Shown here one piece after another: positions 2,126 through 64,000 of a stretch of 64,000 bases of DNA (the first letter of the stretch is position 1; each line of letters begins with the position of its first letter). The notes under the pieces are model-generated. The model made no database searches, was not told where the DNA came from, and saw only the letters and a program-made list of their open reading frames with translations. The position numbers and the translations under genes were made by a program. The stretch is from positions 800,001 through 864,000 of the forward strand of contig CAWIIP010000004.1 of assembly GCA_963836235.1 (NCBI GenBank), written 5' to 3'. Source of the stretch: an uncultured Pseudomonadota bacterium. GTDB lineage: Bacteria > Oederibacteriota > Muellerivitia > Muellerivitales > Muellerivitaceae.

Positions 2126-3295
2126 ATGGCGACCGAGAAGCAAAAAGCGTTGGATATGGCGATCCTGCAGATTGAGAAGGACCACGGCAAGGGAGCAATT
2201 ATGAAACTGGGGGATGCCAAGGTACAGGACGTCAAATCCATCTCCACGGGAGCTATCTCCGTCGACATCGCCACCGGTATCGGGGGAGTACCCCGAGGCC
2301 GTATCATTGAAATATATGGACCGGAATCCTCCGGTAAAACCACCCTGACCCTTCATATTGTGGCTGAGTGCCAAAAAGCCGGTGGAACCGCTGTTTTTAT
2401 TGACGCCGAACATGCCATGGATCCGGTTTACGCCAGGAAATTAGGCGTTAACGTGGACGAACTCCTGATTTCTCAACCCGATTCAGCCGAAGAGGCCCTC
2501 CAGATCGCCGATACCCTTATTCGTTCCGGCGCCATTGATGTGCTCGTTGTGGACTCGGTGGCGGCCTTGGCTCCACGGGCAGAGTTAGAAGGGGACATGG
2601 GTGATGCCCACGTGGGTCTGCAGGCCCGCTTGATGAGTCAGGCCCTTCGGAAGTTGACGGCTTTGCTTTCCAAGTCCCATACTTGCGCCATCTTCATCAA
2701 TCAAATCCGTGAGAAAATTGGGGTCATGTTCGGTAACCCCGAGACTACCCCGGGTGGACGCGCTTTGAAGTTTTACGCCTCCATGCGACTGGATATACGC
2801 CGAGTGGAAGCCATCAAGAGCGGCGACCAGAACATCGGTAACAAAGTGAAGGTCAAAGTCGTGAAAAACAAGACGGCACAACCTTTCCGGGAAGGGTTCG
2901 TTGATATCATCTTCGGCGAAGGTATTTCGAAAGAAGGCTCCCTCATTGATGTGGGCGTCGAAATGAATATCGTGGACAAAAGCGGCACCTGGCTGAGCTT
3001 CGGGGAGAACAAAATCGGACAGGGCCGGGAAGCCGCCAAGACTTTCTTGAAGGAACATCCGGAAGTGATGGCCCAGATCGAAAAGAAAATCAAGGAAAAG
3101 ACCGGATTAATACCAGCCCCGACGGTCCCAGTTGAAAAAGGGAAAACCGAGACTTCCGGATTGGCCACAGTGAGTCCGTCAAATGCTCCGGTGCAAAATA
3201 AACTAGTGGCTACCTCAGCGGTTGTGCCACCGCAAATTAAAAAGGACAGCGTTTTTGTTCCGACTGATAAGGCCAAGGTCGCATTGAAGAAATAA
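2126..3295 (+). CDS. recA: Recombinase RecA with ~55-aa low-complexity C-terminal extension
   Basis: [43 protein letters not shown]; AAGGAG RBS before ATG 2126. Confidence 0.99.
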
Positions 3296-3321
3296 AATCA
3301 GTAAACTAATTTTACCCGTTG

Positions 3322-3359
3322 AAAGGGGCGTGGGAAACCACGACCCCTTTTGTTTTTTT
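3322..3359 (+). terminator. Intrinsic terminator after recA
   Basis: AAAGGGG-CGTGG-gaaa-CCACG-a-CCCCTTTT plus T-run. Confidence 0.8.
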
Positions 3360-3420
3360 CAATAGGTTCATTTCACTTGAATTGAATACAATAAGCGAAC
3401 CCCAAATGGAGGACGATCTT

Positions 3421-5754
3421 ATGACGAAGACGCCCATCAATAAACTTTTGAAATTCATTCTGTGGACTGGCGGTCTAATCGTCGGACTTTTTGTGCTCTT
3501 ATTGATTGCCGCAGCCATCATCATCCCCATCAAGTTCCCGCCCGAGAAGTTAAAGGCTATGGCCACGGAACAACTCACCCAAGTCCTTAAGCACAAAGTG
3601 ACCATCGGTTCCGTCCATTTCAACATCCTCAGCGGGTTTGGTATCCAAGACCTAGTGGTAGCCAACCGGTCCGGTTGGGCCTCGAAACCCCTACTTCAGG
3701 CGGCGGATATTTCCATTTCTTACCATTTGCTGCCCTTGCTTTGGGGACAGGTTTCTTTAGGGGAAATTAAACTGAACCAGCCCCAAATCCTGGTGGAAAA
3801 ACGGGGACCCGGCAACTTCAACTTTAGCGATATGACGGGTTCCAGCTCGGCCCCGGCCGCCACGGCTCCTGCGGCCAGACCCGTCTCCGCCAAGGCCAAA
3901 TCCAAAGCCAAGACCAAAGGGAAGAAGAAGAGACGCGCTGAATTTATCCAATCCGAGGAAGCTCCTGTTCAAACCTCCTTCTTCGCGGACAGCGCTTGGG
4001 CTGGGACGGCTTCCAGCGCTTCCACCTCCTCAAAAATCATCCAACAGCTTTCAGTGGACAGCGTCAATATTGTCCACGCCCATTTGGAATACCTGGACGA
4101 GTCGGTTTCGCCCGCGCAGAAATCGGTGGCGGATGACCTGAACGTCAAGATCAAGAATATCTCGCTGGATGGCGGGAAAATCACCTATTCCATTGACACG
4201 CCTTTTACCTTCAATAAGTTGACTTACAAGTTCAGCGTCGGGGGAAGCGCGCGTTATTTCTACGCCAGTCAATCCATCAAGGAACTAGCGCTAAAGGGCG
4301 CCGTGAACGATTTGGGTTTCAACCTTTCGGGAGACGCGCTCAACATGACGGGCAATTACAGCCCGAACATGGACGGGGAAGCTTCTTTAAACATGCTCAA
4401 ATTCGTCGGGTTGGTTCCTAGCTCGCTCTACCAGATGCCCCAAGGCTTGTCGCTGACGGGCCCGGCCAAGGTGGATTTCCACCTGGCGGGAAGCCGGGAC
4501 AGCGGGTTGGAGCTTTCGGGAACCGCTGATGGGTCCGAACTGGTTATCCAATATAAAGACCTTTTCGTGAAGACCGATAAGACAGCCTGCAAGATCGATT
4601 TCAAGACCGTCAACAACTTGATACGAGGGGTCTATGACGTGCCCTCTTTCACGGTGGTATACGGTGATTGGAATGTGACGGGTTCTTTTCATTACAGCGC
4701 GAACGCGCCCTGGTCCTGTAAAATTCACTCGGATGCCCTGCCTTTCAAGGGCCTGCCGGGCATGCTGCCGAAAATGAAAAACACAACCGTGGACGGCACC
4801 GGGTCGGTGGACCTTTCCATCGTCTCGTCCCCCGGCAAATCCCTGCCGTTCCTTGTGAACGGGCAAATAGAGCTCAAGGGGGTGGGGGTTACACTGCCGA
4901 ACGAACCCTATCTTCAAAACATGACAGGGCCCATCTATTGTGCCAATAACGTGATTCGAATCCCTTCCATTACTTCCAAGTCCTTCGATGGTGACATCGC
5001 TATGGGGGTCACCCTGAACGGCCCCGCTCAAACTTATAGCTATGCCTTTCGATTGACCAACGTGGACTCCCAAAAGGCTATCGACGGCAGTATCGACGCC
5101 TATGTGACCACTAAGGACTATTCACAATATAAGGACAAGCTTTTCGGCAAGATGAACCTGGCCTATGCCGGTTATGGCAAAGGTTTCTCCGGTGACGCCA
5201 TGATGGCCAGCCAAGTCGGGCAAGGGAATTACAGCCTGACAGACACAAAACTCAAGGGGTTCAGCGCCATCAAAACCGTAAACAGTCTTTTGAAGGACAA
5301 GAGCGACGAAATCCATTTCGATAACACCACGGGTAACCTGGCCATGCGCAACAAGGTTTTCTCCTATACTTCCAGTAACATCGGGAAAATCGGCAGTGTG
5401 GCGGTGGTGTGGGGCATGGACGTCGTCAAGATGACTTACTCGCCTGACATGCAGGTGAAGTGCAACATCAAAAAAGACTTGGTGGATACGAATGCTGTTC
5501 TCGGGGTTCTTCCTCAATCCCTGAGGGGTATGGCGAAGGTCGATTACTTGGCGGACGATAATGGAAATATTCCAGCGGACGTCAAATTTACCGGGCCGGT
5601 CTCAGAAAACCATTATTCCTGGGATACCACTCGTATTGGAAACAATGTCAAAAAGCACTTGGGAAGTATTATTCAACAAGGGTTGCAGTCGCCCGGCGCG
5701 CAAAACACGGTCCAGGACCTAGGCAATAAGCTGAAAGGCCTTTTCGGCCATTGA
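3421..5754 (+). CDS. AsmA-family (AsmA-like lipid-transport) protein
   Basis: N-terminal TM anchor, 'LLPLLWGQV..GEIKLNQPQI.VEK...G.FNFSD' AsmA-N signature, repeated beta-rich units; GGAGG RBS before ATG 3421. Confidence 0.75.
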   Translation: MTKTPINKLLKFILWTGGLIVGLFVLLLIAAAIIIPIKFPPEKLKAMATEQLTQVLKHKVTIGSVHFNILSGFGIQDLVVANRSGWASKPLLQAADISISYHLLPLLWGQVSLGEIKLNQPQILVEKRGPGNFNFSDMTGSSSAPAATAPAARPVSAKAKSKAKTKGKKKRRAEFIQSEEAPVQTSFFADSAWAGTASSASTSSKIIQQLSVDSVNIVHAHLEYLDESVSPAQKSVADDLNVKIKNISLDGGKITYSIDTPFTFNKLTYKFSVGGSARYFYASQSIKELALKGAVNDLGFNLSGDALNMTGNYSPNMDGEASLNMLKFVGLVPSSLYQMPQGLSLTGPAKVDFHLAGSRDSGLELSGTADGSELVIQYKDLFVKTDKTACKIDFKTVNNLIRGVYDVPSFTVVYGDWNVTGSFHYSANAPWSCKIHSDALPFKGLPGMLPKMKNTTVDGTGSVDLSIVSSPGKSLPFLVNGQIELKGVGVTLPNEPYLQNMTGPIYCANNVIRIPSITSKSFDGDIAMGVTLNGPAQTYSYAFRLTNVDSQKAIDGSIDAYVTTKDYSQYKDKLFGKMNLAYAGYGKGFSGDAMMASQVGQGNYSLTDTKLKGFSAIKTVNSLLKDKSDEIHFDNTTGNLAMRNKVFSYTSSNIGKIGSVAVVWGMDVVKMTYSPDMQVKCNIKKDLVDTNAVLGVLPQSLRGMAKVDYLADDNGNIPADVKFTGPVSENHYSWDTTRIGNNVKKHLGSIIQQGLQSPGAQNTVQDLGNKLKGLFGH

Positions 5755-50633: not shown

Positions 50634-53600
50634 TTGAACCAGTTAACCACCGTTCCACCGATTGGAATTTTTGAATTGACCTTAAATCGATATAAAAAGA
50701 TATTTCCACGGCATTTCATAAAACAGGTTTATCTTTTTTTCATTTTGTTTATGTTTTCGGTTGTCCCTTCCGTTTTCGCTTCCACTTATATCCCCTCACA
50801 GGCTTGGAGCCGGGACATCGATGCCGGGGGTTATACGGATGGTGCCCCGGTTGGTGGTTTTGGCGCCGGAAGCTATACTTGGAATTTCGCGGGGGATTTT
50901 TACCTGAGCCGCCTCAACATCGCCACCGCTCCCACCACCTGGACCAACAACAATCCCTATACGGTTGACGGCAATTGCGGTTTTTATATGTACCAAAAAC
51001 CCCTGGGCCAAGCCGCCGTTACCTACCGCCTGGATGCCGCCGCGTTGGGTACGGGTCAGGCCAACTATTACTCCCTCTTCCCGAAAGCCTGGGTGGATTA
51101 TTACGGTTCGGATTTTGCCTGTAAGGCCCGGGTGACGCAATTTACGCCTCTCATCCCCGGGGATTACACCCGAAGCAGTTATCCCGAGGGCATCTATGAG
51201 TGGGATCTTTCCAATCCCACTTGCACCACGACGGATGTGGCCATCATGCTGACCTGGGACAATAGTTTTGGGGGCACCACCGCGGCGGTCACCACCTCCG
51301 GGAGTGACACGGGACTGGTTTTAACCCGGACCAGCGGGAGCGCCACCAGCAAGTCCCAGGGTGAGTTCACCCTGGCTTGTTCCTCCGGCTCCGGGGTGAC
51401 GGTCACCTACCAATCCGCCACGGGCGTCGCCGCCCTTCAAACTTCTTTTGGGGCAGCCGGGACCTTGAATAATACCGTGGGGAACAACACCATCGGCGGT
51501 ATCGCTTTTAAAGTGACCCTCGCCCCCGGAAAATCGGTGAAAATTCCCATCGTGTTGGCTTGGGACATTCCCCTGGCCCAACCGGGGACCGGCGCCCAAT
51601 GGTACCGGGAGTACACCCGAACCTACGGAAAGACGGGGCTCAACTCTTTTTCCATCGCCAATGAGGCTTTGTCCAATTACGCCACATGGGAATCGTCCAT
51701 CGATAGTTGGCAAGTGGGAATACTCGGAGGGCCATACCCGGATTGGTTCAAACAAATGCTTTTCAACGAGCTTTATTATTACGTCATTGGTGGAACGCTT
51801 TGGGAGGCGGGGCAGTATGGCTCCACCCAATTTGACGCCGGGCCCGACATGTTCAGCAGCCTTGAATCCTATGTTTATACCTTTTACGGAACCTCGGACG
51901 TGCGTTTTTATAGTTCCTGGGCACTGGCTGAAAATTGGCCCAATATCGACAAACAGGAAGTCGAACAGTTTTGTGACAGCGTGACGATTAATAGCTCTCA
52001 AACTCTTCCCAGGCCGGTGGCTATTGGCACCTGCGCGCATGATTTCGGGAGTTTGAACGATGTCTTCACCGCGTGGAACGACTACACCTACCGGGATTCC
52101 ACCACTTGGAAAGACTTGAATTCCAAATTGGTTCTCATGGTTTACCGGGATTGGCAATTGACGGGACAAAGCGATAGCACCTTCCTCAATTATTGTTGGC
52201 CCGCCATTCAAGTAGCCATGGCCAAAGTGCACAGCCAATGCGTCTCGGGTGGCGTCACCTATAACCTGCCCATCTCGAACGGCATCGACCAAACCTACGA
52301 CAACCTGGGCCTTACCGGGGAGACCTCCTATTGCGGAAGCCTTTACCTGGCCGCCTGCGAGGCCGCCCAAGCCATCGCCACGACCGAGGGGAACGGCGTC
52401 TTGGCCACGACCTATCAATCCTGGTTGACCCTGGGGCAGTCCGACTTCGAGGGAAATCTTTGGAATACGACAGGGAATTATTACAACATTGATACCGGAA
52501 GCGGGGCGGGCGGTGTCACGGGCGTGGCCCGCATCATGAGCGACCAGCTTTGCGGACAATGGTACGCCAAGGCCTGCGGCCTGGCGGACGTGGTTCCTGC
52601 GACCCACGCGGTAAGCGCCTGGCAGGCGGTTCACGACAACAACTGGGCCAAGTTCGACGCGGGGGCCCATGGGGAAGTGAACGTGATGACCTCGGCCGGC
52701 AATATCGACACCAGCACTTCCCAAACTCAGGAAGCCTGGGTGGGAACAACTTGGGGCGCGGTGGCGGGAATGATCCAAGAGGGAATGTTCACCCAGGCGG
52801 TCTCCATCGGCAACAGCCTCTATAACAGCGTTTGGAACTTGGGGCAGATGTGGTATCGAACGCCGGAGGCTTGGACCACGGGCCTTACCAATATCCGCGC
52901 GCCTTATTACATGAGGGCCAACGCCATTTGGGGCGCCAAGCACGCTTATGACGTCACCTCTCCCTGCGGAAGCGCCAGTTGTACGCCCATCCCCACCTTT
53001 ACGCCCGTCCCGACGGCGACCTTAAATTGTCCCACGACCGCCACCCCTACACCCACCGCCACCGGCACAGCTACCTTAACTCCGTCTAAAACAGCCAGCC
53101 CCAGCCCCAGTTCGACGATCACTTTTTCCCCCACTTCCAGCGTGACCAAAACACTCACTTCCACCCCCACTTCAAGTCTCACCGGCACCCCAACTTGGAC
53201 TTCCACCCTCACCAGCACGAAAACCGCGAGCGCCAGCCCAACGCAAACCATCTCCCAGACCGCCAGTTCCTCGGCTACCTCTAGCGCCACCTATACCGCC
53301 ACCAACTCCCGGACATCCACTCCCATCTCCAGCTCGACCGCCTCCTGGACCTCCACACCCACATTCTCCTCCACGGCCACACCCACCAGCACGACCACCC
53401 AAACCCTCACCCGCACTCCAACCGCCACTATGACTTCAACCACTAGTTATACCGTTAGTCCTACCTTTTCGATGACGGCTTCCTTGACGCCCAGTGAAAC
53501 CGTAACCTCGACCGCCACAAGCTCCCGGACATCCACCCCTTCCTTAACACCCACTCCGTCCACAACGGCCACCCCAACCGGCACTGTCACCAGCACGCTC

Positions 53601-54455
53601 ACCATTACCTCGACTGCTACGGAAACCCCGACCACTAGCTCCAGTTCCACCGCGATGTCCTCGCAAACCCCCAGCGCCACCGCCACGACGTCCCTAACGC
53701 CCTCCACCACATTCACCCCCACTTTGACCGTCACCGAAACCTCGACCCCTTCATTAACCACTACACCCTCGGCCACTTCATCAAGCAGTCAAACTTCCAG
53801 TCCTACTTTGTCCTTCACCGTTACCTCCACGGTTTCCTCTTCCGCCACCAGCACCGCCAGCCCGACCGTCACCCTCACGCCCACTGGAACTAAAACTCCA
53901 ACTCCCACCTTGACCGCCACATCCAGTGCGACCTCCACGGCCAGCGCCACTCCCACCATGACTTGGACCAAAACATCCACCCCTAGCCAAACTCCGAGCA
54001 CCACCCTTACTTTCACAGTGACCACGACTTCCACCGCTTCAAGCTCCTTCACCCCCTCCTCAACCCCCTCCACCACCACAACCGCGACCTCCTCGGTCAG
54101 CGCCACCATGACACCCACTCCAATATTCACCGTCACCTTTACCCCCACCGCCTCCGCTTATTCCTCCCCAGTGACACTCCTGCCGCCCTATCCCAATCCC
54201 GATAAGGGAGGCGAACCAGTGACCATTGCCATTGAGGTGCCAGGTCCGGTGGTTGTGACTTGGAAAGTCTTCACCACGGCATTTCGAATGATCGATGGGG
54301 GAACATCTAGTTTTTCCGGAAACGGGACTATCCAATGGGATATGAAAGACAAGTTGGGAATCGAAGCGGCCGGCGGCCTTTACTACATTCGGGTTGAAGT
54401 CCAAACCAGCGGCGGGACTACACGGAAAATCTTTAAAATACTGGTAATTCGATAA
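50634..54455 (+). CDS. Secreted GH116 beta-glucosidase-like protein with Ser/Thr-rich stalk and FlgD/T9SS-like C-terminal domain
   Basis: G.P.GGFGAG, LFNELYY, LES..Y.FYGT.DV.FY, WKDLNSK, DQTYD, M.DQL.GQWY, E.W.G, RTPEA, YMR; start uncertain. Confidence 0.85.
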   Translation: MNQLTTVPPIGIFELTLNRYKKIFPRHFIKQVYLFFILFMFSVVPSVFASTYIPSQAWSRDIDAGGYTDGAPVGGFGAGSYTWNFAGDFYLSRLNIATAPTTWTNNNPYTVDGNCGFYMYQKPLGQAAVTYRLDAAALGTGQANYYSLFPKAWVDYYGSDFACKARVTQFTPLIPGDYTRSSYPEGIYEWDLSNPTCTTTDVAIMLTWDNSFGGTTAAVTTSGSDTGLVLTRTSGSATSKSQGEFTLACSSGSGVTVTYQSATGVAALQTSFGAAGTLNNTVGNNTIGGIAFKVTLAPGKSVKIPIVLAWDIPLAQPGTGAQWYREYTRTYGKTGLNSFSIANEALSNYATWESSIDSWQVGILGGPYPDWFKQMLFNELYYYVIGGTLWEAGQYGSTQFDAGPDMFSSLESYVYTFYGTSDVRFYSSWALAENWPNIDKQEVEQFCDSVTINSSQTLPRPVAIGTCAHDFGSLNDVFTAWNDYTYRDSTTWKDLNSKLVLMVYRDWQLTGQSDSTFLNYCWPAIQVAMAKVHSQCVSGGVTYNLPISNGIDQTYDNLGLTGETSYCGSLYLAACEAAQAIATTEGNGVLATTYQSWLTLGQSDFEGNLWNTTGNYYNIDTGSGAGGVTGVARIMSDQLCGQWYAKACGLADVVPATHAVSAWQAVHDNNWAKFDAGAHGEVNVMTSAGNIDTSTSQTQEAWVGTTWGAVAGMIQEGMFTQAVSIGNSLYNSVWNLGQMWYRTPEAWTTGLTNIRAPYYMRANAIWGAKHAYDVTSPCGSASCTPIPTFTPVPTATLNCPTTATPTPTATGTATLTPSKTASPSPSSTITFSPTSSVTKTLTSTPTSSLTGTPTWTSTLTSTKTASASPTQTISQTASSSATSSATYTATNSRTSTPISSSTASWTSTPTFSSTATPTSTTTQTLTRTPTATMTSTTSYTVSPTFSMTASLTPSETVTSTATSSRTSTPSLTPTPSTTATPTGTVTSTLTITSTATETPTTSSSSTAMSSQTPSATATTSLTPSTTFTPTLTVTETSTPSLTTTPSATSSSSQTSSPTLSFTVTSTVSSSATSTASPTVTLTPTGTKTPTPTLTATSSATSTASATPTMTWTKTSTPSQTPSTTLTFTVTTTSTASSSFTPSSTPSTTTTATSSVSATMTPTPIFTVTFTPTASAYSSPVTLLPPYPNPDKGGEPVTIAIEVPGPVVVTWKVFTTAFRMIDGGTSSFSGNGTIQWDMKDKLGIEAAGGLYYIRVEVQTSGGTTRKIFKILVIR

Positions 54456-54527
54456 ATTGAAAAGAACATGGCAATCAACGCCAAGACTTAAGGAAATGGG
54501 ATTGGCTAGGTTCCTGGGTTACTGCGT

Positions 54528-54555
54528 TGTCCACGACGGGGACCCTTCGTGGACA
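54528..54555 (+). repeat. 28-bp cassette-boundary site R1
   Basis: TGTCCACGACG-GGGACC-CTTCGTGGACA. Confidence 0.9.
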
Positions 54556-54595
54556 GGTAAAAGACCCATGAATACCTATTTCGGGAGTGAATTTA

Positions 54596-55024
54596 ATGGG
54601 AAATGATATTAAGGTTTGCTCAACCGACAATACCCAATGCGTAATTATAAAATTGTTGGAAATCGCAAAAGAGAATTATCCAAGTTTGAAAATATCAGTT
54701 GAGATTAAATTGACGGAGTTCAGCGGAAGTTCAACGGCTTGGATTAGCCAAGATGTTCTTAAAAGTTTCGCTAACTCATTAGATGAACTTAGTCGAAAAA
54801 GAACCGGGCAAGTATATTTAGAATCGATGAGTCCCAAGCATCTGCAACTTGCCATTTCTCCGTTAGATTCTGTCGGACATTTTCTCCTAGAAATTACGGT
54901 ATCAAAACATGTTCCTATCGACCGAAAAATGGTGGATCACCAGGTGTCAGGCGGCTTCGAACTTGACCCTGGAAATCTCCCTGAACTAGTTCGTGAGTTT
55001 AAAAATTTAGTATCAAAGTGTTAA
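54596..55024 (+). CDS. Hypothetical protein, possible WapI-like immunity protein
   Basis: AT-rich; FSG...WI....L..F...L..L....G...LESMSP..L.L....D..GH pattern; GGGAG RBS. Confidence 0.55.
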   Translation: MGNDIKVCSTDNTQCVIIKLLEIAKENYPSLKISVEIKLTEFSGSSTAWISQDVLKSFANSLDELSRKRTGQVYLESMSPKHLQLAISPLDSVGHFLLEITVSKHVPIDRKMVDHQVSGGFELDPGNLPELVREFKNLVSKC

Positions 55025-55030
55025 ATTCAT

Positions 55031-55058
55031 TGTCCACGATGGGGACCCGCCTTGGACA
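55031..55058 (+). repeat. 28-bp cassette-boundary site R2
   Basis: TGTCCACGATG-GGGACC-CGCCTTGGACA, 6 bp after the stop codon. Confidence 0.9.
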
Positions 55059-55145
55059 ATAAAATGGATAATGTTGGCCTACCCCGCTTTTCTTTTATAA
55101 GCCGGGTAGATAAAAAAAGTTAATAGAATTCAATCGAGGCTGAAA

Positions 55146-56465
55146 ATGGAATCTCCCCAGACAAACACGCGTCCGAAAGCACTCCTGTTTTCGGTCAGAA
55201 CGCCCAGGGTAACTGATACCGAAGCGATGGAATCGATGATCGAACTCGAACGGCTGGTGACGACCTTGGGTTACGAGGTGACCGGAACTATGTCCCAGCG
55301 GCAACCCAGCACAAAAGGGGTCACTGTGGTGGGTGAGGGAAAACTGATGGAACTCGCCCAACTCACCGGCGGAAAGGGCTACCGGGATAGAGTTAAGGGG
55401 CAGTCCGAAGCGCCAAAACAGGAACAAGTCCCGGCCTCGACTCCCGAGGGACCCGCGATGGTGGTCGTTTTTGACTGTGATTTGAGCCCGTCCCAGATTC
55501 GAAATGTCGAAGAGGCTTTGGGGGTTCCGGTGCTCGATCGAACCGGGGTGATTATCGAAATCTTCAACCGGCACGCGAAGACCCGGGCGGCGCGACTCCA
55601 GGTCGATATCGCGCGCCAAACCTATCAGGCTCCCCGTCTCAGGGATACGGGGGTTGGAAAGGAACGCCAGTCTGGCCGGGGATCCGGGGAAACCATCATC
55701 GAGACGGAAAAGCGCAAAGTCCGCGACCGCCTGGCTGAGCTGAGGCACGAGTTAGAAGCGGTTCAAAGAGAAGAGGAACATCGCCGGATGAAACGCGCGG
55801 AACTGCTCGGCGCCGCGCTCGTGGGCTACACGAATGCCGGAAAATCATCCCTCATGCGGGCGCTGACCGGCAGCGACGTCCTGGTGGAGGACAAGCTCTT
55901 CGCGACCCTGGATACGACGATACGCGCCCTACAACCAGAGACCCAGCCGAGAATTCTGATCACCGATACGGTGGGTTTTATCCACAAGCTTCCACACGAT
56001 CTGGTAGCGTCCTTCCGTTCCACGCTGGATGAGGCCCGCGGCGCCGCCCTGCTTCTTTACGTGGTGGATGCCGCTGATCGAAACTTTCGTTCCCAGCTCG
56101 AGGTGGTTCGGGAAGTCTTGGGTGAGATTGGCGCCGACAAAACGCCATATCTTCTCATTCTCAATAAGGCCGACTGCTTGAGCGAATGGCAGAAGCAGGT
56201 TCTCGGGTCGGAGTATCCGGACGCGGTTTTAACCTCGACCCGAAGTCCCGAGGACATGCGAATCGTCAGTGAACGCCTCATTCATTTTTTCGAGAAAGAC
56301 ATGATTGAGAAGGAAATTCTCGTTCCCTATAAAGCTCAAGGTGTCATCCGAGAAATGCGTTTGAATATGAAAATCTTGAGGGAGAGCTTTACCGAAGAAG
56401 GCGTTCTACTGCTGGTTCGCTCTCGTCCGATTGACCTTCAGCGCCTGAGTAAAGTGATGAAGTAG
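55146..56465 (+). CDS. hflX: GTPase HflX
   Basis: LSPSQ.RN, DRT..I.EIF..HA.T, LVGYTNAGKSSL, LFATLD, DTVGFI..LPH.LV.SF.STL, NKAD. Confidence 0.95.
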   Translation: MESPQTNTRPKALLFSVRTPRVTDTEAMESMIELERLVTTLGYEVTGTMSQRQPSTKGVTVVGEGKLMELAQLTGGKGYRDRVKGQSEAPKQEQVPASTPEGPAMVVVFDCDLSPSQIRNVEEALGVPVLDRTGVIIEIFNRHAKTRAARLQVDIARQTYQAPRLRDTGVGKERQSGRGSGETIIETEKRKVRDRLAELRHELEAVQREEEHRRMKRAELLGAALVGYTNAGKSSLMRALTGSDVLVEDKLFATLDTTIRALQPETQPRILITDTVGFIHKLPHDLVASFRSTLDEARGAALLLYVVDAADRNFRSQLEVVREVLGEIGADKTPYLLILNKADCLSEWQKQVLGSEYPDAVLTSTRSPEDMRIVSERLIHFFEKDMIEKEILVPYKAQGVIREMRLNMKILRESFTEEGVLLLVRSRPIDLQRLSKVMK

Positions 56466-56660
56466 TGCCTGCGGTGTGTGCCGCCCTTCGATTTTAGATA
56501 TAGAGGGCGGTACTACACCTGCATCGAGGCTTCAAGCCGAGATGCAAGCTTTGGTTGTACCTGTCGAAATAATAATGCGGTAGGTACCCCGTACGATTCA
56601 CATGTGAATCGTGAACCAGGGGTGTCCCAGACGGGCTCGCAAGCTTGGTTGATAAGAAAT

Positions 56661-56688
56661 CGTCCACGACGGGGACCCGTCGTGGACA
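56661..56688 (+). repeat. 28-bp cassette-boundary site R3
   Basis: CGTCCACGACG-GGGACC-CGTCGTGGACA. Confidence 0.9.
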
Positions 56689-56765
56689 AACAAAATAACT
56701 TGAATTATGTCTGCAATTGAAATATTTCGGGAGTGGATTTTAGGTTGTCCACGAAAGAGGCCTTT

Positions 56766-57656
56766 ATGAAAACCATAGTCCTTTTCCTGATGGAGGCCGT
56801 ACTTCTTTTACCCACCTTTTTATGTGCCCAAACTCAAACTCCATCGCTGAGTGAAGATTGGACGCCAAAAGTCGAATTGGTATGGCCCACTCCCCGACCA
56901 AGCCTCGGGGATCACGATGACCATGTTTATCCCGCCGAGATCAATAAGATTAAACGCGTAAAACTCCCTTTTGATCTATTCACGTTTTTTGAAAATTTGG
57001 ATCTTGCCTTAGAACGTGATAGTGACGAGTCTGACATTGATGAAAAAGACGTTAAGAAATGGAAGGAGGATTACCAGAAGCTTCAAGAACTGGGTTGGTC
57101 GAAGGGAGAAGGCCTTGACATGATCCGGGAAAAATGGGTTCGCAAAAGGGGTTCCTTCGGCTTTGTATGGTTTGGAAGAAGCATTTACTTTATCGATCTT
57201 ATGAAACCGACAGAAGCCATTGTGCTGTTGTCGGGAACCTACGGAAGGGACGCAAGGCCGGCCAAGGAAAGGGGCAAATTCGCGAATGAGGTGGATGGAA
57301 TTGAAATTGAAAAAATAGGTGATGATACCTATCGGATTTTTGCGCAGGGGCTCGGCGGGGACATGAAGTTCGGTTTTTCTCCCAGCACTGAAGTTTGGGA
57401 TTACAAATTAAACAGCGATTTTATTACTTATTATGATTTTAGCCACTCCTTCGGGAAAGACCTGGAAAAGAACGGCCACCGGGATATCGTGGTCTATGGC
57501 GAAGGATATCGTCAGCTCGGACCCGGAAATGTGCATTATGAGCTGCAGGGTCTCGGCGTGTTTTCTTGGAACGGGAAAAAATGGATAAATATAAGCGACA
57601 AGGAAAAAGAATTTTTGGCCGAATTGTCAAAGATTTTCCCGGCCTACAGCCTCTGA
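56766..57656 (+). CDS. Hypothetical secreted protein
   Basis: Signal peptide MKTIVLFL...CAQ; DLEKNGHRDIVV (FG-GAP/Ca-loop-like); AGAGG RBS. Confidence 0.7.
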   Translation: MKTIVLFLMEAVLLLPTFLCAQTQTPSLSEDWTPKVELVWPTPRPSLGDHDDHVYPAEINKIKRVKLPFDLFTFFENLDLALERDSDESDIDEKDVKKWKEDYQKLQELGWSKGEGLDMIREKWVRKRGSFGFVWFGRSIYFIDLMKPTEAIVLLSGTYGRDARPAKERGKFANEVDGIEIEKIGDDTYRIFAQGLGGDMKFGFSPSTEVWDYKLNSDFITYYDFSHSFGKDLEKNGHRDIVVYGEGYRQLGPGNVHYELQGLGVFSWNGKKWINISDKEKEFLAELSKIFPAYSL

Positions 57657-57663
57657 ATGCACT

Positions 57664-57691
57664 TGTCCACGACGGGGACCCGGATTGGACA
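57664..57691 (+). repeat. 28-bp cassette-boundary site R4
   Basis: TGTCCACGACG-GGGACC-CGGATTGGACA, 7 bp after the stop codon. Confidence 0.9.
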
Positions 57692-57718
57692 GGAGTACAA
57701 CGTTATGTGGAGGGCAAG

Positions 57719-59569
57719 ATGGAGAACTGGCGTCCTTGGTTATATCCCGACCTTAGTTTCGGGAGTTATTTTCGGAAATATCCATACGTATTCCTATTTA
57801 GCTTTATCTGCGCTTTTTGCTTTATTTTCAATATCGACACCCCCTGGTTCTTCCTCAATCCCAGCACCCGTCTCTCGAACGTAGGGCACTTCACTCCTTG
57901 GATCTACTGCTGTATGTTCGGGTTGCCTCTCTACTCATTCATTCACCTACTACTCAACAGCCCCAGGTTGAAGAACTTCAAGTTCCACGTAACTATCTAC
58001 ACCTTAGGGTTGGCCGTCCTGTTGGGGATGTTCTTTAGCTTGAGCGAGGGTGATCGGCTTTGGTCCGATTTTTTCCATCCTTTCTTATGGGTTTCCTTGA
58101 CCGCCTTTTTGTGGCCTCTCGTGGGCTGGGGCCTTTCAAAGGACGAAACCCACAGCTATTTTTGGAACTTCCTGGCGGGTCTGCTCAAGGCCTTTTTGGC
58201 CTTTTTCCTTTGTGTCGGAATGTTCCTATGGCTTAACAGGTTCTTCGGCGGTTTTTTGAACGGTAATTATTTAATCCCCGCCTGGGCCCGGAATTTTTTC
58301 AATGCCAATAATATCATCGGTCTGGCTTTGCAGGTCGTGACCCCCTTGGTCTTTCCCTGGTACATCCTTGGGAGCTTGGAAAAAACTTTGGGCACGGCCG
58401 GGGAAACGCAACCTGAGGGGATCCCTTTTGGGCGAAGGACAACCCTCGGGGTCTTAGGCCTGTTGGCGGTCGGGTTCCCCCTTGAATTTTGGAAAGTCAT
58501 CCAACAATTGCGTTCTCACCAATCCATCTATTTCTTCGATGAAAAAATGCTCTTGTTCCTATTCGCCTTGCTTTCCATCGGACTCTTGCAGGCGGGGAAA
58601 GTGAACTGGCCGGAAAAGTGGCTGGGGATCTATCCCAAGGTGGTATCCGGCCTTTCCCTTTTGTTGGTTCTCATTTCCGGATTCACTCTTCCGTTTAATT
58701 TGGGAAGGAATGATATAGCTGGGGTTTATTATTCGCTGATCTACATAGTTTGGTTCGGCTTGGTTTTTATTTATTTTTTCTTCCGTCCCCAGATGGGCTG
58801 GGTAAGGCCGCTCTTAACCCTGTGGGTGTTATTGCTCCTCACCCTGTGGGGCCCCTTGAGCCCGGCTAGTCTAGCCTTGAGGGATAATGAAAAAGGATTG
58901 AAAAATTACATGGTCCAGGCCGGCCTATTGAAAGACGGCCTACTGGTAAAGGCCCCGCCGCCGCAGGATCCGAAACACCCCCTGAACCAGGTCGTTTGGC
59001 GGCTTCAGGACTTATTTCGATGGGATGGATTGGACTGGCTGAAAGGTTCCTTTCCCCTTGAATTGCGGAAACTGGATTGGGACAAGGAAAAGGGCCTCGC
59101 CAACCTGCCCAAACTGATGGATTGGCTGGGCCTGCCCCTGATGAACGGCCAAACCAACGTAAACGAATACCAATCGTACTCCGTTCAATACAACCGGCGG
59201 GATCGGACGAAGCATTTTGGGCCTTACCAGCTTGTGGATTTCAACGCCTATCAAGGAGGCGGAGCGCCCAGTAATGCCCCTGAATTTTATCTCTCCCTGC
59301 CTAAGCCGAGCGAAAGCCTGGAGCTTTACGACAATGGAAAGTTGGCGGGCGTGATCCCATTGAAGAAGGTCTATGCCCATCTGGAAAAGTATGAGCGGGT
59401 CCATACCCAACGGAGCTTGGTTCTCCCCAAGGACATGGAATTAGAGTATGAAAATAAAAAAATACAGGTGGAGATCAATATCACTTATCTTCAGTTAAGG
59501 GTCCTCGAAGGGAAAGGTGTCATTCAATATTGTTCGGGGGAAATGCTGGTCAGGCGAAAAGGTCGATAG
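57719..59569 (+). CDS. Polytopic membrane protein, DUF4153-like
   Basis: Many TM segments, 'YFWNF', 'WGPLS..S', 'GLLKDG.LVK'; GGAGG RBS before ATG 57719. Confidence 0.65.
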   Translation: MENWRPWLYPDLSFGSYFRKYPYVFLFSFICAFCFIFNIDTPWFFLNPSTRLSNVGHFTPWIYCCMFGLPLYSFIHLLLNSPRLKNFKFHVTIYTLGLAVLLGMFFSLSEGDRLWSDFFHPFLWVSLTAFLWPLVGWGLSKDETHSYFWNFLAGLLKAFLAFFLCVGMFLWLNRFFGGFLNGNYLIPAWARNFFNANNIIGLALQVVTPLVFPWYILGSLEKTLGTAGETQPEGIPFGRRTTLGVLGLLAVGFPLEFWKVIQQLRSHQSIYFFDEKMLLFLFALLSIGLLQAGKVNWPEKWLGIYPKVVSGLSLLLVLISGFTLPFNLGRNDIAGVYYSLIYIVWFGLVFIYFFFRPQMGWVRPLLTLWVLLLLTLWGPLSPASLALRDNEKGLKNYMVQAGLLKDGLLVKAPPPQDPKHPLNQVVWRLQDLFRWDGLDWLKGSFPLELRKLDWDKEKGLANLPKLMDWLGLPLMNGQTNVNEYQSYSVQYNRRDRTKHFGPYQLVDFNAYQGGGAPSNAPEFYLSLPKPSESLELYDNGKLAGVIPLKKVYAHLEKYERVHTQRSLVLPKDMELEYENKKIQVEINITYLQLRVLEGKGVIQYCSGEMLVRRKGR

Positions 59570-59611
59570 TCTTGGGCTGGCCGAAAATCCGCTTAGTGAG
59601 GAGTGGTGGCC

Positions 59612-59639
59612 TGTCCACGACGGGGACCCGTCGTGGACA
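59612..59639 (+). repeat. 28-bp cassette-boundary site R5 (perfect arms)
   Basis: TGTCCACGACG-GGGACC-CGTCGTGGACA. Confidence 0.92.
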
Positions 59640-59668
59640 ACGAAACGGTACCTAAAAGACCTAACAAG

Positions 59669-60175
59669 GTGAATGATTTGGAAGCCAAACAGCATGATGA
59701 ATCCAAACAAGTGAAAGTTTTGTTCAGGACACCTGCCGAGAAGGACGAAGCTTTTGTGGAAACCCTCTGGGCTATTCCACAAGGTGGCGACCTCTACAAG
59801 TTAGATAACAACCCCATCTATCCTTATGGTGTTTCTTCCGGAGATATTGTCGAAGCGCCTTTCGATCCAGATGAACAGTTTCGAAAGTTTACAAAAGTCG
59901 TAATAAAATCTGGAAACAAAACGGTAAGAATTATTTTTGATAAAAAAGTTGAGGAATCAAAAGAGGATCAAGCAATTTTGGATAAGTTGGTTCAAATGGG
60001 TTGTGACTATGAGGGTTTGAACCAGATACATTTTTCTATAAATGTTCCCTCTTCAGCTAATTTTAAAGAAGTTTGCGAATTCCTAACGGCTTTAAAAATT
60101 CAATGGGAACATGCCGATCCGAGTTACGACGAACTTTATGGTGGAAAGAATAAAAAGTGGTGGTGGCCGTTTTGA
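59669..60175 (+). CDS. DUF4265-like protein
   Basis: ETLWA......YKLDN.P.Y.YGVS.GD.V, SGN.T.R, GC.YEG, S.NVP, WE.ADP; start GTG 59669 or in-frame GTG 59633 inside R5. Confidence 0.75.
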   Translation: MNDLEAKQHDESKQVKVLFRTPAEKDEAFVETLWAIPQGGDLYKLDNNPIYPYGVSSGDIVEAPFDPDEQFRKFTKVVIKSGNKTVRIIFDKKVEESKEDQAILDKLVQMGCDYEGLNQIHFSINVPSSANFKEVCEFLTALKIQWEHADPSYDELYGGKNKKWWWPF

Positions 60176-60178
60176 GGT

Positions 60179-60206
60179 TGTCCACAACGGGGACCCGGCG
60201 TGGACA
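60179..60206 (+). repeat. 28-bp cassette-boundary site R6
   Basis: TGTCCACAACG-GGGACC-CGGCGTGGACA, 3 bp after the stop codon. Confidence 0.9.
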
Positions 60207-60563
60207 GCGGACAGAGTGAATCAGAAAGGGATTTTATGAAACACAAACTGATGTTATTAGCTTTTTGTTTTATTATGTCACCAATATTTAGCGCTGATTC
60301 AACAAGTGGACAAAATTAACAATAAAATCGGTGTGGTCTGGCTTGAAATTCACTCCTTGTAAAGTTCGTGCAGTGGCCGCGATATCATTTCTTCGTTGCC
60401 ACGCTGAACTTCGACTTTCGTCCCAAATCTCGCTTACCCGCAGACCCTGGCTTTACACTCGGAAAAAATTCGGAGGGTGACCGCTTGACCATTACTAAAA
60501 GGATTTAGTTTAAGGACCAACTTTCGATTTTCCGATGGAAAGTTTTTTTCGATCGATGGTTTT

Positions 60564-60592
60564 TTGACTCCCCGCCGAAACTGGGGTTTAAT
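60564..60592 (+). promoter_or_regulatory. Sigma70 promoter of the LacI regulator
   Basis: TTGACT-17-TTTAAT. Confidence 0.5.
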
Positions 60593-60678
60593 CTATTGAG
60601 CCAACAGTAGGCACCTCGGTTTTTGCGACGGGTTTTTGTTCCAAAGTTAAAATTCCGATTATTCCGTTAGGAGAAAAA

Positions 60679-61737
60679 ATGCAGGTTACCATTTATGAAG
60701 TCGCCGAAAAGGCGGAAGTTTCCATCTCCACTGTTTCCCGTGTCATTAACAACAAGCCCAATATCCCCGAATACACCAAGCGCAGGGTCTTAAACGCCAT
60801 TGAAACCCTCAACTTCAAGCCCAATCTTATCGCGCGGGGCATGGCCTCCAAGAAGGTCAACCTGGTCGAGGTTTTTTTTTCCTGGCACAAGCAGAGCCCC
60901 TGGTTCACGGACCTCCTCCATGGAATCAATAAGGAGTTGCGGGAACAGGAATACGGCCTTCTCGTCAACACACTCGATGGGGCGGCTATTTTCAACCCCA
61001 AAGAAGTCCATCGAAGGCTCTTCCACAATGCCGTGGACGGAGTCCTGATGATCGCTCCTTATTTGGAGGAGAAGGATCTTCTTCTTTTGGCGGAAAGCGG
61101 CGTGCCGATAACCCTCATCGGGTACCGGTCGCAAAATAAAGCCATCAGTTTCGTTGACAGCGACAATATCAACGCGGCTTCAGCGGTGGTAAGCCATTTA
61201 TTCAAGTTAGGACACACTCATATTTCCTGCATTACCGGTCCTACGGAAACTTCGCCCAACGCCGCCGACCGTCTCGAGGGATATCGGCAGGCCATGGTCC
61301 GGCATCAATTGAAAATTCCGGGCAGTTACGTAATAGGGGGGGATTTTGTCCGGCAGACGGGTAAGGAAGCGATGCAGAAGCTTTTGGCCCTGCCCATGAG
61401 ACCGACAGCTGTTTTTGCCTGCAACGATGAAATGGCCTTAGGGGCTTGGCACGCCCTCCAAGAAGCGGGGTTGACCGTTGGAAAAGATATGGCCCTGGTG
61501 GGTTTTGACGACATGTTCGAGGCCAGTAAGGCGCCTTATTCCCTAACCACGGTGCGACAGGATTGGATGAACATGGGAGTGAAAGGGGTCCGGATTTTGA
61601 TGGATAAGATTCGGCAAAAGGGGCATGGGGAATCGCAACAGGTTCTCGTCCCCGGGAAGTTGGTTGTGCGCGGTTCCTGCGGATTTCCGGTCCAAAGCCC
61701 CAAAAGGAAAGTCGCCCAGCCGCTCCTGAAACCTTGA
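60679..61737 (+). CDS. LacI family transcriptional regulator
   Basis: TIYEVAEKAEVSISTVSRVIN, F.PN..AR, PTAVFACNDEMA, VGFDD, LTTVRQ. Confidence 0.96.
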   Translation: MQVTIYEVAEKAEVSISTVSRVINNKPNIPEYTKRRVLNAIETLNFKPNLIARGMASKKVNLVEVFFSWHKQSPWFTDLLHGINKELREQEYGLLVNTLDGAAIFNPKEVHRRLFHNAVDGVLMIAPYLEEKDLLLLAESGVPITLIGYRSQNKAISFVDSDNINAASAVVSHLFKLGHTHISCITGPTETSPNAADRLEGYRQAMVRHQLKIPGSYVIGGDFVRQTGKEAMQKLLALPMRPTAVFACNDEMALGAWHALQEAGLTVGKDMALVGFDDMFEASKAPYSLTTVRQDWMNMGVKGVRILMDKIRQKGHGESQQVLVPGKLVVRGSCGFPVQSPKRKVAQPLLKP

Positions 61738-62241
61738 TCGAGGGGATATTCCGCATTTTTTGTAAGTTTACCCATAAGGTGTTTTTCGTTGGTGCTTTTC
61801 TCGCCCAGCGCCTCCTTTTCTTAAATTGCGTTTAAAACTTTAATCATCTTTATGATTCGGCGGCCCAGCCATGATAAAGATGACGATGACGGCGAGTGCG
61901 TGTGACGTGGCGGGAGAACTGATATCGTGGTCCTGAACTTGAACGATCTCTACGCCACCTTCGTGCAGAAACAGACTTCCAAAATTGTACTTCAGCGGTA
62001 ATGGAAACTTTCTAAAAACCCCCTCTCAAAAATTTTGAGCATTTGACGTCAGAGCTTTCTAGAAGTTAGATTTCTATTTTTTGCCATTTTCATAAAAGCG
62101 TTTTCGCAGAGATAGCAAAACAAGGTTTTTGTGTGGAGGCGTGACTTTTAACTTTTCGTGGCGGCTTACCAAAGGCTACCCTCTGTGAAATAGACTTTTT
62201 TTCTTCGTCATGAGGGAAGAATTTGGATAAGGAATGGGATT

Positions 62242-62685
62242 GTGAAGCAAAAGTGGTCAAAAGAAAAAATTGTTGAAACTATCCGAGAATTGCGAAAACA
62301 GAATATCGACATCTCCGCGGGTAACATTTCAAAAAATTATATTCCCCTTTTCATGGCTGTTTGTTCCAAACGCTACTTTTCCAGTTGGGGGAGCGCGGTA
62401 ACCGCTGCCGGCATTGATTATGAGCAAATAATGGAGGCGGGGCAAAAGCGCCGCCTTCAAAAATTAAGGAAATGGTCAAAAGAAAGGATACTGGAGGAAA
62501 TCCGCGGAACAGGTTTCCGGGAATTGGTGAAAACTTATCGGGACCGGTTGCCACTCTATTCAGCCGCACGAAAGGAATTTGGAAACTGGCATCTGGCCCT
62601 GGCGGCTGCGGGTTACCAACTCGCGAAGGGGACTTATAAAAACTCAAAGCGGATTAATTCGGCTAAGAAAAAGGAAATCCATTGA
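62242..62685 (+). CDS. Small basic protein with two homing-endonuclease-associated-repeat-like units
   Basis: Two repeats of KWSKE.I.E.IR ... F.SW/NW..A..AAG. Confidence 0.6.
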   Translation: MKQKWSKEKIVETIRELRKQNIDISAGNISKNYIPLFMAVCSKRYFSSWGSAVTAAGIDYEQIMEAGQKRRLQKLRKWSKERILEEIRGTGFRELVKTYRDRLPLYSAARKEFGNWHLALAAAGYQLAKGTYKNSKRINSAKKKEIH

Positions 62686-63234
62686 TTGGCAGAAAAAAAG
62701 AAAACATCCAACTTGTTCTTCCGAAAAAATTGGACTACTTTTTTTCAAAGGGATGATTCGCGACCGTGAAAGGAATCCCTGAAAAGGGGATTCACATCCT
62801 GTTAAAACCCAAAGTTTTATGGGCGGCATCGGCCACCCGTCCGCGGCTTGGGTGATGAGGTCCCCCTGGGTCGAAGCCCCCAGTTGAGACCCACGGTTTG
62901 GTTGTGCCAATTCCAAAGGGGAATTGGCCCCATGGGATGATGACTGTGGTGAACTTGCCGAATCCGCTTCCGGCGCGGAGGGGTGTATCATTTGGGTTCC
63001 GTCGGGCGTCATCTCGTTAAATCCGGCGACCTTATCCGTCCCGCCCGGCTTATGGAAAAAAATGATCCTGGCCGCCACGGGTTTTTTGGATATAAGCATT
63101 TCAGGTAGTTTTTGGATGAAACTCCACCTATCTTTTGCGTCCGCGGAAAAGATCAAATATAGAAAAGATATCTTACGTTATCATAAAACCCATCTTCCCC
63201 CAGACAATTCAAAGCTTTTCGATATAATGTGCCC

Positions 63235-64000
63235 ATGAAAAATTCAGCCAAGCGCTCCAAAAAAAAATTAGGCCCCATCCGCATCGGGGTGATCGGCCTG
63301 GGCCAGATCGCCCTGAAGGCCCATCTTCCTGGTTACGCCAAAACAGAAGGTTGCCTGCTGACCGCAATTTATTCGCAAAGGGAAGCCCACGCCAAGCAGG
63401 TGGCGATGCAATATGGAATCCCTCATATCTATAAGGATTGGCGGCGTCTTTTGGAGTCAGACCACGTTGATGCTGTCTCCATTTGCACCCCGAATTTCAC
63501 CCATGCCCCCATCTCTTTAAAGGCCTTTCGGGAGGGCAAGCACGTGATGTTGGAAAAGCCAATGGCCCTTACCCGGGCCGAGGCGCTGGACATCATTCGG
63601 GCGGCGAAAAAAGCGGCCGGGTTTTGATGATTCACCACAATATGCGGTTCGATCCGGCGGTTCGGACGGCCGAGAAGTTGTTTCGGAAAAACATTATCGG
63701 CGACATTATCGCTTTTCGGGGGGCCTTGACCCACCGGGGGCCGCAAGCCTGGAGCCCTAAAGCCACTTGGTTTTTCAACAATTCAAAATCAGGCGGAGGG
63801 GCCCTGATGGACCTGGGACCCCATGTCTTTGACAGCCTCAGTTTTCTGCTGGGGGAATCCTTGGTTATGGCAGGGGCGGTGGGGGTATCGGGGAAGGGAA
63901 TCAGCGTCGGGAAGGGGATACCCCAAACCCAGGACGAGATCCATTGCGCCTGCACGCTTCGGGTTAAAACCGGGGCGATCGGGACGGCGACCGTGGGCTG
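63235..64000 (+). pseudogene. Gfo/Idh/MocA oxidoreductase, frameshifted near 63607-63627, running off the window edge
   Basis: GVIGLGQIA, ICTPN..H, GKHV.LEKP in the first frame; HNMRF and GGGALMDLG.H continue in the -1 frame. Confidence 0.75.

Follow-up and report, generated by a model that had tools for sequence, protein, structure and literature searches.

Integrons are the textbook example of how bacteria store and rearrange genes one at a time; they require a single dedicated integrase and folded attC sites, which are 57-141 bp long and carry R''-L''...L'-R' boxes (RYYYAAC / GTTRRRY), extrahelical bases and a variable loop. Discrete modules bounded by short sites are also known from Xer/dif recombination, from dif-integrating elements and from the pdif sites of Acinetobacter, which lie on plasmids in alternating orientation; the recombinase that serves these systems is a housekeeping enzyme encoded elsewhere. 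In the rAID-1 clusters of the Bacteroidales, according to the accessible part of their description, a 5' XerD-like recombinase gene heads the cluster and repetitive intergenic sequences are "reminiscent of integrons" (10.1101/471110). In this work, we analyzed a stretch of 64,000 nucleotides (hereafter the window; G000:C4:800001-864000) from a 3.97-Mb, five-contig genome of the candidate division FCPU426, in which six directly repeated 28-bp palindromic sites separate five genes. We conclude that these sites probably delimit the units of a gene cassette system that is distinct from integrons and belongs to an uncultured phylum. Throughout, G000 denotes the genome of the window and other G numbers its relatives, C1-C5 are contigs, and L numbers are site-bearing loci. 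Our literature searches (supplements lay outside their scope) gave neither a published description of the site or system nor a match to a 16-mer of the site; the 15 FCPU426 papers considered out of 134 were, by their titles and the beginnings of their abstracts, ecological surveys, and those on Xer, dif-like sites and cassettes gave known systems only.

The window contains six plus-strand copies of tGTCCACGACGGGGACCCnnnnTGGACa, with 26-bp cores at 54529, 55032, 56662, 57665, 59613 and 60180; the positions assigned to them in an earlier, sequence-only reading of this DNA comprise the core plus one flanking base. All six fit the pattern GTCCA-N5-GGGACC-N5-TGGAC exactly, against 0.04 matches expected by chance (100 shuffles), and a seventh site was not found in the window with up to 3 mismatches allowed. 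The six co-oriented copies of that reading were thus recovered at their positions, with GGGACC and the outer GTCCA/TGGAC boxes fixed in 6/6 and, as it had also stated, a variable inner right arm (CTTCG, CGCCT, CGTCG, CGGAT, CGTCG and CGGCG in sites 1-6). It had further proposed one plus-strand gene per interval and three sites just past a stop codon, and both held: every interval has one plus-strand open reading frame (ORF), whose stop codon precedes the following 26-bp core by 7, 196, 8, 43 and 4 bp in cassettes 1-5, three of these distances being 4-8 bp. The array is composed as follows (PWM, position weight matrix; aa, amino acids):

54528..54555, plus strand: site 1, start of the array, PWM score 52.1 bits, 74 bp 3' of the stop codon of a GH116 gene
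54556..55030, plus strand: cassette 1, ORF 54587-55024, 145 aa, WapI-like immunity protein (PF24716, E 2.5e-09), GC content 0.38
55031..55058, plus strand: site 2, matched by both pattern and PWM
55059..56660, plus strand: cassette 2, hflX-type GTPase, ORF 55146-56465, 439 aa, with a 196-bp 3' tail
56661..56688, plus strand: site 3, palindrome perfect save for the central GA, DNA hairpin of -13.7 kcal/mol
56689..57663, plus strand: cassette 3, ORF 56733-57656, 307 aa, without a Pfam family
57664..57691, plus strand: site 4, whose right arm CGGATTGGAC forms no palindrome with the left one, -6.0 kcal/mol, z -1.75
57692..59611, plus strand: cassette 4, ORF 57707-59569, 620 aa, without a Pfam family
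59612..59639, plus strand: site 5, exact pattern match
59640..60178, plus strand: cassette 5, ORF 59669-60175, 168 aa, DUF4265 (PF14085, E 1.4e-26), GC content 0.39
60179..60206, plus strand: site 6, end of the array, exact pattern match

The same layout is repeated across the genome. At up to 1 mismatch the pattern has 57 copies and a reversed control pattern has 0, and the PWM scan gave 77 sites: 13 arrays on 4/5 contigs, with 2-15 sites each, account for 69 of them, and 8 are solitary; orientation is uniform within each array, one weak site excepted. The motif therefore clusters in co-oriented arrays instead of scattering, as the sequence-only reading required of a cassette system. Of the 54 intervals with an ORF, 50 have their largest ORF in the orientation of the sites, and for 36 of these 50 the stop codon of that ORF lies no more than 50 bp ahead of the next site (usually 3-50 bp); ORFs typically start 3-60 bp past a site, and several intervals hold two small overlapping ORFs. 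Two other arrays carry two HAD hydrolases, a LOG-family protein, BrnT with a ribbon-helix-helix partner, an NHL-repeat protein, a GNAT acetyltransferase, an outer-membrane barrel, a zinc-ribbon protein, an AraC regulator, a hemerythrin, an SPW protein and a peroxiredoxin (AhpC), and the cassette functions, in these arrays and in the window, are mutually unrelated. The mean GC content of the cassettes is 0.455 (range 0.31-0.60), that of size-matched random stretches 0.507 (sd 0.05). In all this the arrays resemble integrons and clusters of attC sites lacking integron integrases (CALINs), which likewise combine one mostly promoterless, co-oriented ORF per unit with a site at its 3' end, form long arrays of unrelated small genes (toxin-antitoxin pairs and acetyltransferases among them), occur as several arrays per genome and vary in content between close relatives. 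They differ from pdif modules in being direct repeats within arrays on chromosomal contigs. With repetitive extragenic palindromes (REP) and their RAYT transposases they share short imperfect extragenic palindromes 3' of genes and the presence of RAYT-like genes in the genome; unlike REP, the sites are clustered and co-oriented, form no inverted doublets, and neither flank RAYT-like genes nor co-occur with them. The top strand of the site lies on the G-rich strand, taken as the leading one, in every array; we rejected this orientation as evidence on mechanism, since most genes of this genome are co-oriented with replication anyway.

The site itself is a near-perfect palindrome of 26-28 bp, GTCCACGACGGG-GA-CCCGTCGTGGAC (also written tGTCCACGACGGG-GA-CCCGTCGTGGACa), whose asymmetry is limited to the central GA. 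Of the 11-6-11 geometry with an asymmetric 6-bp core that had been ascribed to it, the inverted arms stood and the core asymmetry was reduced to these two bases; because the palindrome runs into the supposed core, the 11-6-11 parse is one possible reading and not the sole one. In its 28 bp, two inverted arms of ~11 bp and centre of 6-8 bp (2 asymmetric bases of which are left by the palindrome), the site has the geometry of Xer/dif, dif-integrating elements and Acinetobacter pdif, and it shares with them one conserved and one degenerate arm: among 355 unique sites from this genome and from foreign loci, the left arm has the consensus in 216 and the right arm in 96. Conservation spans -1 to +29, with one T-rich base pair ahead of the site (C instead of T in site 3), A(A/G) behind it and then an A-rich stretch. 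The resulting site of 28-30 bp, with a sequence constant across genera, does not match the 57-141-bp attC type, and RYYYAAC/GTTRRRY boxes, extrahelical bases and a variable loop were not seen, as judged by eye, in line with the absence of attC boxes noted earlier. As single-stranded DNA the consensus forms a hairpin with a 12-bp stem (-13.7 to -14.7 kcal/mol, with 0/200 shuffles as stable). Across the 355 sites, however, the hairpin is not preserved: a perfect stem is present in 64 and at least 2 mismatches in 194, the arms show no covariation (Fisher p 0.65), and in the window, two of six copies form hairpins no more stable than those of shuffled sequence. What is invariant are the outer boxes and the centre, and this combination with one degenerate arm looks more like a duplex site read by a protein.

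Other classes of repeat fitted less well. The sites failed the test for intrinsic terminators, as A-rich sequence and no T-run follows them 3' and only 1/6 window sites scored, on the opposite strand; neither terminator-like sites (14 found, 9.8 expected) nor promoter-like sites (7 found, 6.1 expected) are in excess in the window stretch. They also failed that for CRISPR, with its non-coding spacers of 25-50 bp, the intervals being coding and 140-4721 bp long. As a separate observation on the window cassettes, the motif TTTCGGGAGT occurs at 54579, 56725 and 57757, that is, 25-67 bp past three of the sites, and may be a leader or ribosome-binding region that these three cassettes share; the genome has 14 copies of it (~7.6 expected), none besides those three near a site.

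The site is a property of one family of the phylum. At up to 1 mismatch it is found in 28/31 genomes of the family of the window, with 0-89 copies per genome, and at zero mismatches in 27/99 genomes of the phylum, all within that family, and in 0/68 genomes of 22 other families; one sister-family genome has a single copy at 1 mismatch. The 28-mer is kept in 15/17 genera of the family amid unrelated flanks, and its copy number within one genus can be 89, 16, 9 or 1. Such a distribution, with the same sequence in 28/31 family genomes and in 0/68 outside, points to a conserved reader of the sequence. Contigs matching the site are mostly labelled candidate division FCPU426, with a few under other labels, and their source habitats, by the same record titles, are soil and peat.

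Several lines of evidence show that single cassettes occur in different contexts and that their homology ends at the sites: (i) in G000, a 1276-bp unit made of a site, a 377-aa NHL protein and a site is identical in a C2 and a C4 array, with unrelated neighbours on both sides, and the final 95 bp of cassette 1 with the following site are found again at C1:403314-403436 (98% identity); (ii) window positions 56662-57681 (cassette 3, 1020 bp) are 100% identical to G045:C15:1026-2045, in another genus, where the upstream flanks diverge up to the left site and identity ends after position 17 (GGGGACCC) of the right one; (iii) besides this cassette, at least 4 whole-cassette matches are bounded by sites, among them, to other genomes, one of 99.5% over 2858 bp (a four-ORF cassette), one of 96.2% over 1675 bp and one of 96.6% over 788 bp, all with unrelated neighbours; and (iv) the cassette of hflX, of which the window holds the only copy in the genome (a single tblastn match), recurs with 84-95% DNA identity in 11 other genomes across genera, twice in G021, with a site ahead and often one behind too. 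For comparison, the GH116 DNA next to the array is 65-79% identical across the family, and the Xer-like recombinase discussed below has 56-79% amino-acid identity. The homology of shared cassettes thus breaks at the sites, as expected, with breakpoints inside the site centre.

The position of the exchange was narrowed down with the same 355 sites by comparing pairs that share 40 bp of one flank alone. In the 31 pairs with only the upstream flank in common, the left arm is kept (0-1 differences at positions 1-8) and positions 18-20 differ at frequencies of 0.58, 0.45 and 0.39, against 0.58, 0.50 and 0.51 in random pairs. In the 51 pairs with only the downstream flank in common, positions 19-21 differ at 0.14, 0.20 and 0.00, against 0.50, 0.51 and 0.35, and differences in the left arm are as frequent as in random pairs or more so. 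The left arm thus goes with the preceding cassette and the right arm with the following one, which places the exchange within the stretch from about position 9 to about position 19, inside GGGGACCC or at its borders. Positions 9 and 18 show no linkage to either flank; C to T and G to A, the changes most frequent there, are CpG transitions of one strand and the other, and our guess is that hypermutability lies behind this variation.

Array content also varies between relatives, as the sequence-only reading had anticipated for this locus. In G018, G046, G002 and G003 the GH116 homologue is followed after ~60-210 bp by a homologue of window ORF 63229-63627, and the intervening 8.8 kb of the window is absent. 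G001, of the same genus as G000, retains the flank of array C4:135628 at 80% and lacks the array; 1/10 of the array's cassettes is present there, site to site and with 88% identity, in a different array. The features concerned in the window are:

50634..54455, plus strand: GH116 glycoside hydrolase, the conserved chromosomal gene that flanks the array upstream
54456..63228, plus strand: stretch missing in the four relatives, comprising the array, a LacI-type regulator (60679-61737) and an HNH-repeat ORF (62242-62685)

Between these last two genes, at ~61880-62001, lies a repeat of ~80-120 bp that belongs to a separate small repeat family, with copies of 87-90% identity at C2:1432978, C1:299899, C2:260199 and C2:254422.

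Taken together, these comparisons make it highly probable that the palindromes are recombination sites bounding mobile cassettes. In the mechanism that we propose, they would delimit mobile, mostly promoterless cassettes lying head to tail in many chromosomal arrays, and a cassette would open with a site's right arm (~positions 18-26), continue through a short leader and one ORF, or in some cases a toxin-antitoxin pair or a few genes, and close with the left arm plus invariant centre GGGGACCC of the site that follows. A recombinase whose gene lies elsewhere would bind both arms through the invariant TGTCCA/TGGACA boxes and exchange strands inside the invariant centre, the asymmetric central GA setting the direction. 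Exchange between direct repeats would yield a cassette circle with one hybrid site, and recombination of this circle with any chromosomal site would insert it, allowing both shuffling within a genome and passage between genera. That the exchange is site-specific and carried out by an enzyme encoded elsewhere is the explanation that we favor and regard as fairly probable.

No recombinase gene adjoins the arrays, so that any enzyme would act in trans; a recombinase encoded away from the arrays is also what the sequence-only reading had supposed. It had left room as well for sites near a tyrosine-recombinase gene or at the replication terminus, and neither was found: no recombinase family recurs at the array ends of G000, and the arrays are far from the switch in gene orientation at C1:~327.2 kb. 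The comparison that it drew with rAID-1 extends, as far as the accessible description of that system goes, to co-directional low-GC genes, repetitive intergenic sequence and immunity-type genes (WapI-like and DUF4265 in the window); it fails on the defining adjacent recombinase, since no XerD-like gene adjoins the arrays (1/107 foreign loci has a tyrosine recombinase), and most of the cargo is non-immunity and the phylum a different one. In line with the non-integron system that it had proposed, none of the 31 family genomes has an integron integrase above the cut-off (the best TIGR02249 score in G000 is 77.9 bits, the cut-off 265); an attI-like start beside an integrase was not found either. 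With no IntI found and a site unlike attC, the system is not an integron.

Among the eight tyrosine recombinases of G000 (six paralogous P4-like integrases, one 425-aa protein and one Xer-like protein), the Xer-like one is the leading candidate for the cassette enzyme, an assignment that we make only tentatively. It has 352 aa (G000:C1:328834-329895), and its best family scores are to XerC, XerD and archaeal XerA, all below cut-off. Its gene is single-copy in 30/31 family genomes, being missing in one genome of 63% completeness, and is the sole conserved tyrosine recombinase of the family. In 12/12 genomes examined it lies 1-2 genes from a flip in gene orientation, which in G000 runs from plus to minus at C1:~327,200 and which is taken as the replication terminus. 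The system thus differs from canonical Xer/dif in having a single Xer-like protein and no XerC/XerD pair, and direct repeats in chromosomal arrays far from the terminus.

The other candidates were rejected as the general enzyme. The counts of the six P4-like integrases (~368 aa) and of the 425-aa protein track the sites only loosely, and they occur in 1/107 foreign loci; as 4/6 of the P4-like genes and the 425-aa gene adjoin tRNA genes, we read them as island integrases. One of them, at C2:1185612-1186715 beside tRNA-Ser, has 88-90% protein identity in six other genomes, five of them of other genera, and probably belongs to a recently spreading island, because its paralogues are ~60% and the Xer-like proteins 56-79% identical. 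RAYT-like Y1 transposases are missing (E up to 1e-10) from 11/31 genomes, including G018, which has 89 sites at 99% completeness, and the repeats at their flanks are of their own GGGGTCAG type, not copies of the site. Sequence of the GGGGTCAG type lies upstream of 3/3 RAYT-like genes in G000, with an inverted recurrence downstream of one; one of the proteins has a weak DnaA-like C-terminal match, and relatives have up to 29 RAYT-like matches, many with in-frame stop codons. G000 also encodes two serine recombinases, one of them a truncated large type of 278 aa with Resolvase and Recombinase domains. Homologues of the latter stand at array ends in 6 foreign loci (L016, L053, L014, L023 and L070 among them); its ~280-aa form is present in 5/31 genomes and missing from the site-rich G023, G021 and G005. 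A half-site junction, GGGGACCC|AAAAGGAACACTCAGTACTACTGA, recurs in L053, L014, L070 and at C1:399377 of G000. The IS110 family has no match in G000. The genes in question are:

G000:C5:263448-264407, C2:1841972-1842925 and C2:2047689-2048630: RAYT-like genes, 313-319 aa, 2/3 passing the NCBIfam cut-off
G000:C2:163827-164663 (L160:3827-4660): truncated serine recombinase, converging on and abutting the last site of array C2:164699

The sites are themselves targets of mobile elements, a further likeness to integrons, which also draw group II introns and IS110-family elements to their sites. A group II intron of 1930 bp (436-aa reverse transcriptase plus maturase, no endonuclease domain seen; RF02005, RF00029) has two copies in G000, 99.85% identical, inserted between positions 17 and 18 of a site. 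A second type (RF02003) stands at six places in three foreign loci, a few bases past complete sites, with the junction GTGGACATC|GTGCC; a recurrent 132-aa "ORF" antisense to its RNA is probably spurious. In at least 4 foreign loci, IS110-family transposase ORFs of 358-381 aa start ~95 bp past a site with the same junction, GTGGACAGGTAACA, which suggests an insertion sequence that targets the sites. The elements are located as follows:

L118:2562-4491 (G000:C2) and L125:~3049-4978 (G000:C1), co-oriented with the cassettes: group II intron copies inside a site, between GGGGACCC and TTCGTGGAC
L044:2564-4569 and 7664 onwards; L048:3398, 5898 and 7607; L106:~7291: RF02003 introns
L062:5301-6472, L081:1894-3065, L044:5803-6975 and L020:2058-3230: IS110-family ORFs, the family named by eye from sequence features

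In addition, the final site of array G000:C2:164699-164760 is interrupted past position 17, where the introns also insert and the cassette breakpoints fall; ~31 bp (CTAGGGGACGACCCCCTTGACCCTTTTTGGG) separate this point from the rest of the right arm. The group IIC-attC introns of integrons, as far as the consulted part of their description goes, insert into the bottom strand of attC, opposite to the cassettes (PMC3001079), whereas the introns described here are co-oriented with them.

The reading of these loci as a cassette capture and shuffling system is thus supported as comparative genomics, with the enzyme mechanism unproven, and several observations weigh against the involvement of a dedicated exchange reaction or of Xer in particular. 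Pairs in the linkage analysis are not independent, as one cassette present in several genomes yields several pairs; plain homologous recombination between 28-bp repeats would also put breakpoints in the shared centre, and the linkage result is therefore no proof of an enzyme. The 100% match with G045 could in principle be carry-over between bins of related assemblies, although as a general explanation this is opposed by the graded matches of 88-99.5% to other genomes. No excised circle, empty site or recombination product was observed directly: four public sequencing runs gave mostly site-sized pieces of other organisms' contigs, together with three between-site joints whose sides of only 20-30 letters make them unreliable, and in nine public runs at most 0.15 of the words were present. 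Only 1 of the 107 foreign site-bearing loci has a P4-like integrase and 1 a RAYT-like gene. As to Xer, the site-free genomes G017, G007 and G019 carry it too, and a chromosomal dif was not found near xer or the terminus, either as inverted repeats or as the dif core ATAA-N6-TTATG; conserved 11-mers and 11-N-11 palindromes over 12 xer loci were just a tRNA and a terminator, and patterns of the outer boxes alone gave a single match (C1:326690), inside an ORF and not conserved. The site is also unlike the bacterial dif core, ATAA-N6-TTAT, which agrees with the earlier statement that it is not a canonical dif. Nothing ties Xer to the site sequence, and the link between them is one of geometry and of its standing as the only conserved tyrosine recombinase.

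Against this background, the alternative that deserves most attention is a chemistry of folded single-stranded DNA, in which the site would form a hairpin on the lagging-strand template and an analogue of the integron integrase, or an HUH enzyme, would exchange one strand. We keep it as the main rival because the sites draw mobile elements of kinds associated with folded DNA in the literature, namely retroelements (two group II intron types) besides the IS110-family ORFs, and group IIC-attC introns, as far as the cited description goes, insert into attC (PMC3001079). The strong hairpin of the consensus and the constant placement of the site's top strand on the G-rich, presumably leading, strand would suit it. 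Yet that strand bias is expected where most genes follow replication, the stem is perfect in few sites and its arms do not covary, a third of the window copies fold like shuffles, and the orientation of the introns is the reverse of that seen in attC; an integron integrase is above cut-off in 0/31 genomes, and RAYT-like genes are missing from site-rich genomes and flanked by repeats of their own. We consider this mechanism unlikely.

Less likely still is that the sites are passive, REP-like repeats with an RNA or regulatory role, for instance as hairpins that act between the genes of long operons to stabilise or process their messages, on which homologous recombination and horizontal transfer have imposed a cassette pattern. 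Short extragenic palindromes just 3' of genes would indeed be co-transcribed with them, no dedicated enzyme was found, and crossovers limited to an identical centre are what recombination over short homology would give. The copies, however, are clustered and co-oriented, neither dispersed nor paired, and they lack a T-run and any excess of terminator-like sites. The loss of the hairpin beside invariant outer boxes and centre fits DNA read by a protein better, and the link to a REP transposase failed. The persistence of one 28-mer in 15/17 genera amid unrelated flanks, its swing from 1 to 89 copies inside one genus, and cassettes of 96-100% identity in foreign contexts, cut exactly at the sites, also speak against passive repeats. 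That the arrays arose in assembly or binning, through the joining of unrelated fragments at repeats, might be suspected in metagenome-assembled genomes, as repeats can mislead assemblers and one match to another bin is of 100%; such an artefact is very improbable, given that the window lies inside a contig of 953,724 bases in a five-contig genome of 99.4% completeness and 0.14% contamination, that the same layout is found in 28/31 genomes and in at least 107 loci from differently named isolates, and that ORFs stop just ahead of the sites and start just past them.

Altogether, site-specific exchange between the 28-bp sites would give this family a genomic outcome like that of integrons, reached with a different, much shorter site and with no dedicated integrase found, in a phylum known from metagenomes only. 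If the exchange is enzymatic, cassette platforms have more than one origin, and some of them escape software written to find integrons. The system is directly testable, as it offers a 28-bp site, a one-gene candidate for the enzyme and often-sampled habitats, soil and peat. It is tempting to speculate, although we hold it to be rather doubtful, that it is an integron without an integrase, in which the housekeeping Xer of a whole family captures, stacks and exchanges promoterless cassettes at short dif-like sites in a dozen or more arrays, hflX included. If Xer does drive the exchange, the principle of the small plasmid-borne pdif modules would be extended to chromosome-wide gene exchange.

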